From contig OZ242008.1 of assembly GCA_965204735.1 (NCBI GenBank), positions 3,360,001 to 3,424,000 of the forward strand: a stretch of 64,000 nucleotides of DNA, read 5' to 3'. The translations under genes and the position numbers were made by a program. Below the pieces are notes generated by a model. That model saw only the letters and a list, made by a program, of their open reading frames with translations. It ran no database searches and was not told the DNA's origin. The DNA is from Longimicrobiales bacterium. Its GTDB lineage: Bacteria > Gemmatimonadota > Gemmatimonadetes > Longimicrobiales > Gaopeijiaceae. Below are positions 12,102-27,681 of this stretch, piece after piece (positions within the stretch are counted from its first letter, which is position 1; every line of letters starts with the position of its first letter).

Positions 12102-13727
12102 ATGACACAGCCCGCCCGAGCCCAGCCTCCAGCCTCCGCCGCCACGACCGGCTACGAGGCCGAGCTGTGGAAGATGGCCGACGCCCTGCGCGGCTCGATG
12201 GACGCCGCCGAGTATAAGCATGTCGTCCTCGGGCTGATCTTCCTTAAGTACGTCTCAGACGCCTTTGAGGAGAAGCACGCCGAGCTTACGACGGACGAAC
12301 ACGCCGACCCGGAAGATGTGGACTACTACCGGGCAGAGAACATCTTCTGGGTGCCCTCCGAGGCCCGGTGGGGGAGCTTGCAGGCCAGAGCGAAGCAACC
12401 GGGCATCGGACGGCTTGTGGACGACTCGATGGCCGCCGTCGAGCGCGACAACCCGCGACTGAAGGACGTGTTGCCGAAGGACTACGCCCGTCAATCCCTG
12501 GACCAGACGCGCCTTGGGCAGATCATCGACTTGGTGAGCAACATCAGGATCGGAGACGAGGATGCCCGCTCGAAAGACGTGCTCGGTAGGGTCTACGAGT
12601 ACTTTCTCTCCCGCTTCGCCGACGCCGAGGGCAAACGTGGCGGCGAATTCTACACGCCGCGTTGCATCGTCCGCCTGCTGGTCGAGATGATCGAGCCCTT
12701 CCAAGGCCGCGTGTACGACCCCTGCTGCGGCTCGTCGGGGATGTTCGTGCAGTCCGTCGAGTTCATCCGGGCGCACCAGCAGCCGAATGGCACCGGTGAT
12801 GCGGGCGACAGCGTTGCCGGCCCGCTGGCGAGTAGGGCGGACATCTCCATCTACGGCCAGGAATCCAACTACACGACGTGGCGGCTCGCCAAGATGAACC
12901 TCGCCATTCGGGGAATTGACGGCCAGGTCGCCTATGGGGACACCTTCCACAAAAATCGCCATCCCGACCTCAAGGCCGACTACATCCTTGCTAACCCGCC
13001 TTTCAACGTGAGCGATTGGGGAGCCGAACGGTTGAAGGAGGACCAGCGCTGGCAGTTCGGTACGCCTCCCAAGGGCAACGCCAACTTCGCTTGGGTCCAG
13101 CATATGGTGCACCACCTGTCGCCCAAGGGGGTGGCCGGCTTCGTTCTCGCGAACGGCTCAATGAGTTCTCGCCAAAAGGCTGAAGCGGCCATCCGCCAAG
13201 GCCTAGTGGACGCGGAGCTGGTAGACTGCATGGTCGCCTTGCCGGGTCATCTCTTCTACTCGACACAGATTCCCGCATGCCTGTGGTTCCTTTCACGGAA
13301 GCGCAGTGGCAACCACCAATACCGAGACCGTCGCGGCGAAATCCTCTTCATCGACGCTCGGCGGCTTGGGCGAATGGTAGACCGCACCCACCGCGAACTC
13401 ACCGACGAAGACGTTTCCCAGATCGCCGACACATACCACGCATGGTGTAGCGACAACGGCAAGCATGCAGACGCATACGAAGATGTTCCCGGCTTCTGCA
13501 AGAGCACTTTGTTGGATGATATCCGCCATTACGACTACATGCTTACGCCGGGCCGGTACGTAGGCGTCGAGCCCAGGGAAGAAGACGATGAGCCCTTCGA
13601 GGACAAGATGCGGCGCTTGGCGGCCGAATGGCGGGCGCAAGTGGTGGAGGCCCGGCGACTGGACGCCACCATCGAAGCCAACTTGACGACACTTGGATTT
13701 CCGCCCCCGACCGATGGCACCTCCTGA
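12102..13727 (+). CDS. hsdM: Type I restriction-modification methyltransferase subunit M
   Basis: '[32 protein letters not shown]', 'GEFYTP', motif I 'YDPCCGSSG', motif IV 'NPPFN'. Confidence 0.95.
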
Positions 13728-14155
13728 TGATCAGCTACGATAAATTCCAATTTTCCCTGGCGCGGCTCCAGGAGCAACATTCGAACTACGTCCGCCTCGG
13801 TCCCTCCGTGCCGGAAGCCACTCGTGACGCGTACGCAGAATCAGTGATCCAGCGGTTCGAGACCTGCTACGACTGCATGTGGAAGGTGTTGAAGCGGTAT
13901 CTGACCGATTCGCTCGGCATCCCGGACGTTCCCAACAGCCCCAAGCCGATCCTCCGTCGCGCGTTCGAGAATGACCTGCTGGACGGTCCGATGAAGCGTT
14001 GGCTAGATTACGCCCGGCATCGTGTGGGCACATCCCACGACTACAGTCTCACCAAGGCCGAAGACTGCTTGGCGATCGTCGGTAGCTTCATCGCCGACGC
14101 TGTCGCTCTTCACGAGACCCTGACCGGACACCCATGGGACCGAACAGCAACATAG
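13727..14155 (+). CDS. HEPN-domain toxin (HI0074 / nucleotidyltransferase substrate-binding family)
   Basis: ATG overlaps the hsdM stop (TGATG); 'SVIQRFETCYDCMWKVLKRYL'; RX4HXY motif RVGTSHDY. Confidence 0.85.
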   Translation: MISYDKFQFSLARLQEQHSNYVRLGPSVPEATRDAYAESVIQRFETCYDCMWKVLKRYLTDSLGIPDVPNSPKPILRRAFENDLLDGPMKRWLDYARHRVGTSHDYSLTKAEDCLAIVGSFIADAVALHETLTGHPWDRTAT

Positions 14156-27000: not shown

Positions 27001-27681
27001 GGCTCGGCCCGACCCGGCGAGGAGCTGGACCACGCCGTCCGCCAGATCATCGCCGGGGCCGTGGCGCCCGAGGGCGTGATCGACATCTTCGCCGCCGCCG
27101 GCCTGCCCAAGCCCGACGTGTCGATCCTCTCCGAAGACTTCCTGGCCGAGGTGCGGGACATGCCCCAGCGCAACCTGGCCGTGGACCTGCTCCGCAAGCT
27201 CCTGGAGGACGACCTGCGCACGCGCGGCCGAAAGAACGTCGTGCAGAGCCGCTCGTTCGCCGAGATGCTGGCCCAGACGCTGCGGCGCTACCGGAACCGC
27301 GCCGTCGAGACCGCCCAGGTGATCGAGGAGCTGATCGGCCTGGCCCGCGAGATGCGCGAAGCAGACCGTCGCGGCGAGGACTTGGGCCTCTCCGACGACG
27401 AACTCGCGTTCTACGACGCCCTGGAGACCAACGACAGTGCCGTGAAGGTGCTCGGCGACAAGACGTTGCGTATGATGGCCCAGGAGCTCGTCAAGACCGT
27501 GCGAAGCAACACCACGATCGACTGGACCGTGCGGGAAGACGTGCGCGCCCGGCTCCGCGTGTACGTCAAGCGCATCCTCCGCAAGCACGGCTACCCGCCC
27601 GACAAGCAGGCGGCCGCCACCGACACGGTGCTGGAGCAGGCGGAGGCGCTGTCGGCGGAGTGGTTGCGGGAGGGTGGTTGA
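24040..27681 (+). CDS. hsdR: Type I restriction endonuclease subunit R with inserted S24 (LexA/UmuD-like) peptidase domain
   Basis: The HsdR N-terminus '[14 protein letters not shown]' begins at about 24040 (CTG; first standard start is TTG at 24127). Nuclease '[17 protein letters not shown]', Walker A 'WHTQGSGKS', DEAH, 'GFTGTP', 'MWLTGFD', 'QAIARVNR'. An insert at about 24935-25440 has AAAG, GHSMEP and YTVKRY. Confidence 0.93.

Follow-up and report, generated by a model that had tools for sequence, protein, structure and literature searches.

Gene content of the locus

The window analysed here, a 64,000-nucleotide stretch of the chromosome of a Longimicrobiales bacterium (contig OZ242008.1, positions 3,360,001 to 3,424,000), contains a type I restriction-modification (RM) locus that a preliminary description had proposed to be one composite defence system, combining restriction, an RNase toxin, an abortive-infection polymerase and a cleavable HsdR. 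Its core consists of four co-directional genes on the + strand, as tightly coupled as had been stated. The type I methyltransferase gene hsdM (12102–13727; PF02384, E = 3e-103, and PF12161; PADLOC MTase_I, E = 2.5e-212), whose translation contains the DPCCGSSG and NPPF motifs, is joined through a TGATG overlap (13725–13729) to the gene of an HI0074-family HEPN protein, a predicted RNase toxin (13727–14155; PF08780, E = 4e-19), the start of which is 13727 and not 13628 as in the open reading frame (ORF) call. The third gene (14134–15567; PF18765 and PF01420) overlaps the HEPN gene by 22 bp and encodes an MNT antitoxin domain fused to an HsdS with two target recognition domains (TRDs), hereafter MNT::HsdS. 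After a gap of 81 bp, the slot between hsdS and hsdR is occupied by a gene for a reverse-transcriptase-like polymerase (RT) of the Abi-P2 family (15649–17199; PADLOC AbiP2, E = 3e-175).

The full hsdR (24040–27681, + strand), previously placed some 7 kb downstream, indeed lies about 6.9 kb past the RT gene. It has a HindI-like C-terminus and the nuclease, QxxxY, Walker A and DEAH motifs, and just ahead of Walker A it accommodates a LexA/CI-like S24 domain (24952–25434, + strand). The type I set is complete, with hsdM, hsdS and hsdR all carrying their catalytic motifs, hsdR standing apart from the operon and with an inferred CTG start. The GC content drops from about 0.64 to 0.475 across the HEPN-RT segment, in a genome of 69% GC. 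All catalytic motifs are intact in the window's parts, and the ratio of non-synonymous to synonymous substitution rates (dN/dS), calculated against five Longimicrobiales loci, is below 1 for every part for which it could be computed. The nearest named relatives are metagenome-assembled genomes of Longimicrobiales, one of which (locus L046; survey loci carry L numbers) has an hsdR 94% identical at the nucleotide level.

HEPN and MNT::HsdS form a recurrent module

The HEPN protein, the 142-residue product of a stand-alone gene, contains the RX4HXY motif as RVGTSHDY (R99, H104, Y106) and a QxxE motif (Q42/E45), the latter reported as the catalytic site of an HI0074-family HEPN (PMC11586414; this and all other papers are cited from the accessible parts of their text). 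Profile comparison matched it to HI0074 (1jog, E = 4e-23) and to a HEPN toxin (8xdj, E = 7e-12); R99, H104 and Y106 are invariant in the HEPN alignment, the rows of which were chosen for having that motif, and the HEPN dN/dS is 0.06–0.27. The MNT domain covers residues 1–103 of the fusion and carries GSX10DXD as GSRVTWTSRPQSDLD. G34, S35, D46 and D48 are invariant in 46 proteins recovered by a whole-protein search; the presence of the motif in 79/79 of the loci surveyed below is circular, since the search patterns contained it. The NCBIfam MntA model scores the domain under its cut-off. The AlphaFold2 (AF2) model of the fusion (pLDDT 84.9), in which a short linker (residues 104–107) falls below 50, resembles a normal two-TRD HsdS (Foldseek, 3okg, E = 2e-27) together with HI0073 (1no5, TM 0.87). 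The PADLOC profile Specificity_I (PDLC03138) spans residues 7–476 of the fusion, so such sequences are presumably already present in REBASE-type sets, from which we take the profile to derive. The window thus holds an adjoining PF08780 HEPN with RX4HXY and an MNT with GSX10DXD, the pair of motifs that Yao et al. give as the signature of class I HEPN/MNT systems (PMC7641770). A complex prediction of the MNT domain (residues 1–106) with a HEPN dimer scored 0.00 and was not used for or against anything.

Scanning GTDB genomes with the MNT::HsdS alignment confirmed 270 stretches, and analysis of the best 80 of these 270 yielded 79 loci (L171 and L172, which offered no new layout, were left out of the counts). 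MNT is in frame with HsdS in 72 of the 79, an adjacent HEPN is found in 72, both features in 67, and hsdM lies upstream in 76. The 67 loci with fusion and HEPN come from 16 named phyla (2 unnamed); many carrier names suggest sponge-associated bacteria, indicating a biased locus sample. RX4HXY, which was not part of the locus search, is kept in 62 of the 72 adjacent HEPNs. The losses are asymmetric between toxin and antitoxin: seven of the 79 loci have no HEPN match beside the MNT, and each of the three loci whose MNT domain is broken (L042, L045, L173) has a damaged HEPN as well. On the Z. mobilis plasmid pZMOB01, the order is hsdM-HI0074-MNT::hsdS-hsdR with both motifs kept; an Acetobacter plasmid carries an unfused HEPN-MNT-hsdS-hsdR arrangement. 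Fused and short MNTs interleave in the MNT tree (16 changes, 3 of them forced by starred branches), which is weak (101 columns) and whose short MNTs are possibly contig-end or frameshift pieces. Taken together, these sequence comparisons support the view that HEPN and MNT::HsdS constitute a stable module within this type I family, present in 67/79 loci.

In a genome of the same family, a divergent HEPN-like ORF lacking RX4HXY (L174, 5851–6339) precedes another MNT::HsdS. The plasmid RM system of Z. mobilis ZM4, with the order hsdR-hsdM-hsdS in the accessible text of PMC8432527, is not shown there to be a HEPN-MNT::HsdS module and was left unused.

The slot behind hsdS and its Abi-P2-like tenant

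The RT matches Abi-P2 end to end (PDB 7r08, residues 18–511, E = 2e-79). Homology thus extends over the full RT and the helical C-terminal domain, and the catalytic aspartates and priming tyrosine are present (YRDD, D177, Y48), Y48 aligning with Tyr61, the priming tyrosine of Abi-P2 (PMC9508834). No full-length match to the RT was found in 60 relatives, and a single-protein search of the genome contigs with it returned no match. Among the 79 MNT::HsdS loci, the RT occurs in three, two of them near-identical. Seen from the RT side, in the best 80 of 581 metagenome loci, the upstream ORF is an HsdS by Pfam in 17 of the 66 scanned (the remaining 14 had no upstream ORF to scan), a type I gene is found in 26 of the 80, and MNT::HsdS in two (L086, L125); S24 was matched in none of the 80. 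In an RT tree built from a quick search, whose 'other' rows include short contigs with their context outside view, linkage to RM is clustered (27/50 rows on one side vs 4/34), and linkage to HEPN-MNT shows no clustering (its 7 rows require 6 changes, a number as low being reached in 79/500 shuffles). The window's RT sits on a long end branch (1.11). Elsewhere, an unfused HEPN-MNT pair lies directly upstream of an Abi-P2-like RT (L087, 9157–11515), with no hsd match in 21 kb.

At the 51 loci with a full HsdR N-terminus, the only ones at which cargo ORFs were called, the hsdS-hsdR slot holds 153 ORFs in 111 clusters. The 74 of 111 cluster representatives scanned against Pfam include Abi_C, SIR2, TIR, Mrr, Fic, PIN, KAP, ATPases and transposases, and the syntenic L046, with its 94% identical hsdR, carries other cargo in its slot. 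These data show that the slot behind hsdS is freely swapped and that Abi-P2-like genes are frequent tenants. The commonest cargo is a DUF1828-DUF1829 protein, found at 11 loci (L014, L015, L018, L019, L023, L043, L070, L071, L074, L081, L083), in some of them beside a DUF6978 protein. Past hsdR, the window contains a gene for an SDH/ClpP-like serine protease (27918–28799, − strand), which is absent there in L046 and has relatives in the slot of L021/L022.

A LexA-like domain inside HsdR

The S24 domain of the window's HsdR displays the complete autopeptidase signature, an Ala-Gly site (25018–25023) with a Ser-Lys dyad (Ser 25132, Lys 25267), in line with the self-cleavage that had been suggested for this subunit. 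Its own Pfam score, 21–22.5 bits, is just under the 23.3 cut-off; PF00717 is detected in 32/32 aligned HsdRs at E ≤ 0.001, and Atlas clusters of PF00717 score 0.97. The signature residues are almost invariant (Ala 121/121, Gly 120/121, Ser 121/121, Lys 121/121), and dN/dS of the domain is 0.15–0.52. The predicted cut, Ala327-Gly328 in numbering from the CTG start, would separate the nuclease from Walker A and create a new C-terminus ending in ...AAA. The AF2 model of the N-terminal 687 residues of HsdR is of low confidence (pLDDT 50.5), and no PDB sequence matched at E ≤ 1. The genome carries recA.

Of the 53 loci whose HsdR is full, five have the insert, and all five are from Longimicrobiales; across the phylum, it is present in 10 of 401 genomes. 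In 38 of the best 120 S24 homologues the domain is internal in HsdR; it is C-terminal in 23 on other HsdR-like proteins and in 57 mostly on type ISP enzymes, with two placed otherwise. Outside the genus, the domain forms the C-terminus either of other HsdR-like genes, in whose surroundings HEPN and MNT were not matched (L168–L170), or of ORFs of about 2000 residues. We infer that the insert is a mobile LexA-like domain, from which RecA-triggered restriction alleviation can be predicted. LexA-like proteins conceal ClpXP degrons beside their cleavage site (PMC5742171), and alleviation of EcoKI involves ClpXP acting on translocating HsdR (PMC12707154).

The same genome encodes a 1988-residue helicase-like ORF (G000:C1:762558–768524) with another S24 domain at its end (57% identity to the first), and S24-ending ORFs of about 2000 residues occur in five other genomes of the phylum.

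Start of hsdR, hsdR scraps and a divergent cassette

The conserved N-terminus of HsdR begins at CTG 24040, where three close relatives (L007, L021, L046) have GTG at the matching site; the HSDR_N profile is covered from 3 to 197 from this codon and from 32 to 197 from TTG 24127. Contigs of three sequencing runs, one of which is possibly the window's own source, show zero differences at the CTG; joints with short sides in these contigs were not relied on. A search of 23700–24300, ahead of hsdR, found no sigma-70-like promoter.

A decayed hsdR had been described in the R-gene position behind the operon. What lies there is indeed derived from hsdR, but rather than an entire decayed gene it amounts to three duplicated scraps (17811–18359, + strand) of 78, 131 and 325 bp, which match 24634–24709, 25074–25204 and 25287–25611 of the full gene at 90–92% nucleotide identity and include part of S24 and the Walker A region. 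The scraps sit behind the remnant of an insertion sequence (IS) (17297–17675, + strand), which has 83–88% nucleotide matches at no fewer than four (at least 4) other genomic sites and appears to be of IS21 type, judging from the ORFs of its genomic copies and an IstB Pfam match in L046. A fourth hsdR scrap lies at 29066–29259.

The operon and the full hsdR are separated by a divergent cassette that was missing from the earlier gene list. It begins with a gene for an AAA_14-DUF4143 protein, recognized by Pfam and by PADLOC as PDC-S01 (22627–23862, − strand), followed by that of an EruA-like NACHT antiphage protein (18461–22630, − strand; NF058535, E = 2e-233, 778 bits, under the cut-off of 1000). 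A cassette 88% identical at the nucleotide level is present in L007, but upstream of hsdM (L007 2256–7774), and a paralogous NACHT-AAA pair lies elsewhere in the genome (C1:2828967–2834377). The PDC-S01 AAA and EruA-like NACHT genes are stop-start coupled and mobile as a unit of two genes, with hsdR scraps on its flanks both in the window and in L007. Short duplicates of hsdM or hsdR flank cargo at several loci (9385–9449, besides 17811–18359 and 29066–29259, in the window; L009, L014, L021, L023, L084). These flanking pieces hint that cassettes may enter by recombination at hsd sequences. The sequencing depth of run X2 (136–200 for cassette contigs vs 310–390 for hsdM-RT contigs) was judged too weak and was not used.

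Probably a stack of separate elements rather than one system

The RT is present in 3/79 loci and the S24 insert in 5/53, and the two occur together in 0/79, where about 0.2 would be expected if they were independent. The neighbourhood survey that the preliminary description had called for likewise returned no co-occurrence of MNT::HsdS, RT and HsdR-S24, neither in the 79 MNT loci nor in the 80 RT loci. Independent assortment, the outcome it had named as contrary to its own proposal, is what we find for two of the three accessories, RT and S24. Since these assort separately and are together in none of the loci surveyed, a composite system is unsupported; of that mechanistic reading, the stable HEPN-MNT::HsdS module and the complete S24 self-cleavage signature stand, and the unified four-part unit does not.

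We conclude, with a probability of about 0.6, that the locus is a hotspot in which three distinct elements have piled up: a toxin-antitoxin (TA) module of type VII, wired to HsdS production; an Abi-P2 that acts on its own; and an HsdR predicted to be switched off by DNA damage. HEPN and MNT::HsdS are likely a TA module making the cell's survival depend on an uninterrupted supply of the fused protein. By extrapolation from HepT/MntA and the characterised HI0074-family pair, the HEPN dimer would be an RNase, and the tethered MNT would AMPylate Y106 using ATP, silencing it. With the antitoxin made only as MNT::HsdS, deletion or replacement of the locus, or less fused protein or ATP, would leave newly made HEPN unmodified and stop growth; the type I system would in this way gain a means of addiction, and any guard function would be indirect at most. 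The RT, if it behaves as Abi-P2, would perform untemplated, tyrosine-primed single-stranded DNA (ssDNA) synthesis and abort infection by itself. As for the S24 insert, it probably provides HsdR with its own DNA-damage off-switch: as in LexA and CI, a RecA-ssDNA filament would induce the cut at Ala327-Gly328 and part the nuclease from the motor, and the exposed ...AAA C-terminus, which resembles the latent ClpXP degron of LexA, would amount to built-in restriction alleviation.

Several observations weigh against this interpretation. Among the 72 adjacent HEPNs, no more than 48 have the two motifs intact (QxxE being unscorable in seven), and His or Lys replaces the Gln of QxxE in all five S24-bearing Longimicrobiales relatives; such frequent motif loss suggests that the toxin is often weakened. 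L173 retains RX4HXY though its MNT is broken. Two loci (L059, L073) are cut off after the MNT domain with the HEPN motif still intact, indicating that the fusion gives the HsdS half no protection. Evolutionary distances of HEPN and MNT correlate with those of HsdM less closely (rho 0.51 and 0.35) than those of HsdR do (0.75–0.81; 29 loci). MNT::HsdS is found in 2/17 hsdS-adjacent RT loci vs 2/169 plasmid HsdS matches (at least 80% cover), leaving room for a mild enrichment of the RT near MNT::HsdS. Finally, the window's hsdR starts with CTG and lacks a promoter-like site, so that restriction may be weak.

Could the module instead be a true guard? In that case MNT::HsdS would be part of the M2S1 complex; once an anti-restriction protein (Ocr, ArdA, Stp-like) bound, or HsdR consumed ATP heavily, AMPylation would halt and HEPN be freed, much as for PrrC and Ronin. 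The tight coupling of HEPN to the fusion across phyla, the apparently repeated fusion in the MNT tree, and the precedents of PrrC, Ronin and a proposed release of RM-linked HEPNs upon RM inhibition (PMC3710099, bioRxiv 2023.04.06.535777) would be explained in this way. We nevertheless find it unlikely: MNT is attached through a short, low-confidence N-terminal linker, neutralisation is covalent so that existing toxin would require de-AMPylation, unfused versions occupy the same position in Acetobacter, and one third of the adjacent HEPNs lack the full motif set. A bolder picture, which we would call tentative at best, couples a widespread HEPN-MNT::HsdS guard, with the antitoxin built into the methyltransferase complex and RM inhibition ending AMPylation of the RNase, to a LexA-like, RecA-triggered self-destruct in HsdR, type ISP and other defence enzymes.

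At the other extreme, the arrangement might reflect neutral hitch-hiking and decay, a TA pair having inserted itself between hsdM and hsdS and being tolerated there after the loss of a stop codon; what the window shows would then be a rearranged stack with scarcely any expression of hsdR. The IS remnant, the hsdR scraps, the CTG start without promoter-like site, the frequent decay of HEPN and the long end branch of the RT would fit, but dN/dS below 1 for all computable parts, intact catalytic motifs and retention of the fusion across 16 phyla make this explanation quite improbable. The idea that RM, HEPN, RT and cleavable HsdR work as one unit could draw on the recurrence of hsdM-HEPN-MNT::hsdS-RT in L036/L037, L086 and L125 and on the clustering of RM-linked RTs in the tree. 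We hold it to be very improbable, given the separate assortment described above, the lack of S24 in the RT loci and the S24-bearing HsdR-like genes outside the genus, near which no HEPN or MNT was matched. In this respect the result is a negative one: the apparent four-layer system resolves into a stack of separately moving parts.

Other genes in the window

Further defence-like genes lie at 7223–8827 (− strand), 32472–41186 and 57353–58687, comprising AAA_14-DUF4143, three AAA_15/AAA_21 ATPases, Schlafen/AlbA_2 and DUF488. A truncated radC is found at 9259–9933. A 421-residue ORF of low GC (10155–11420, + strand) has a predicted hydrophobic N-terminus and CxxC pairs, and gave no Pfam, PADLOC or NCBIfam match.

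Comparison with known systems

A description of MNT::HsdS or of S24-HsdR was not found in the literature searched, which mostly excluded subscription journals, nor in the accessible text of PMC2701414, PMC12839542, PMC3874165 and PMC12707154; figures and supplements of PMC3710099, PMC9226505 and PMC7641770, which lay outside the search, may show such neighbourhoods. How type I systems are maintained and guarded could be tested directly on this TA pair, which is joined to an RM subunit of type I in 16 phyla, and Z. mobilis pZMOB01 provides a cultured, harmless carrier of the module.

The module resembles class I type VII TA systems, namely HepT/MntA of S. oneidensis (PMC7641770), HI0074/HI0073 of H. 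influenzae and the pair of PMC11586414, in that a PF08780 HEPN with RX4HXY and QxxE lies beside a GSX10DXD MNT, the latter with the fold of HI0073. It differs in its location between hsdM and hsdS and in having its antitoxin as the N-terminal part of HsdS, a fusion that did not appear in the accessible text on those systems. With PrrC/EcoprrI and Ronin it shares a toxic effector embedded in a type I hsd locus. PrrC, however, is an ABC-ATPase-HEPN anticodon nuclease encoded between hsdS and hsdR, whereas here a stand-alone HEPN lies between hsdM and hsdS; the module has neither the ABC-ATPase of PrrC nor the membrane toxin RonA, and its control would be exerted through AMPylation by an HsdS-fused domain.

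The RT shares with Abi-P2 (UG/Abi class 1) the full-length match, YRDD and the priming tyrosine. Abi-P2 is described as stand-alone, mobile and prophage- or plasmid-borne (Mestre et al., PMC9226505), whereas the window's RT is chromosomal and follows hsdS, as do its homologues in 17/66 scanned loci.

The S24 domain resembles LexA, lambda CI and UmuD in its Ala-Gly site, its Ser-Lys dyad, the spacings of 37 and 45 residues, which we take to be LexA/CI-like, and the Ala-rich new C-terminus. Unlike these proteins, it comes with no repressor domain; the module is either internal to HsdR or C-terminal on other HsdRs, on type ISP enzymes and on helicase-like ORFs of about 2000 residues. EcoKI achieves its ClpXP-dependent alleviation without an S24-like domain in HsdR (PMC12707154). 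If our prediction is true, the S24 module would wire restriction directly to the SOS signal and give restriction enzymes a self-contained way to spare self DNA during repair, beyond the EcoKI/ClpXP route.

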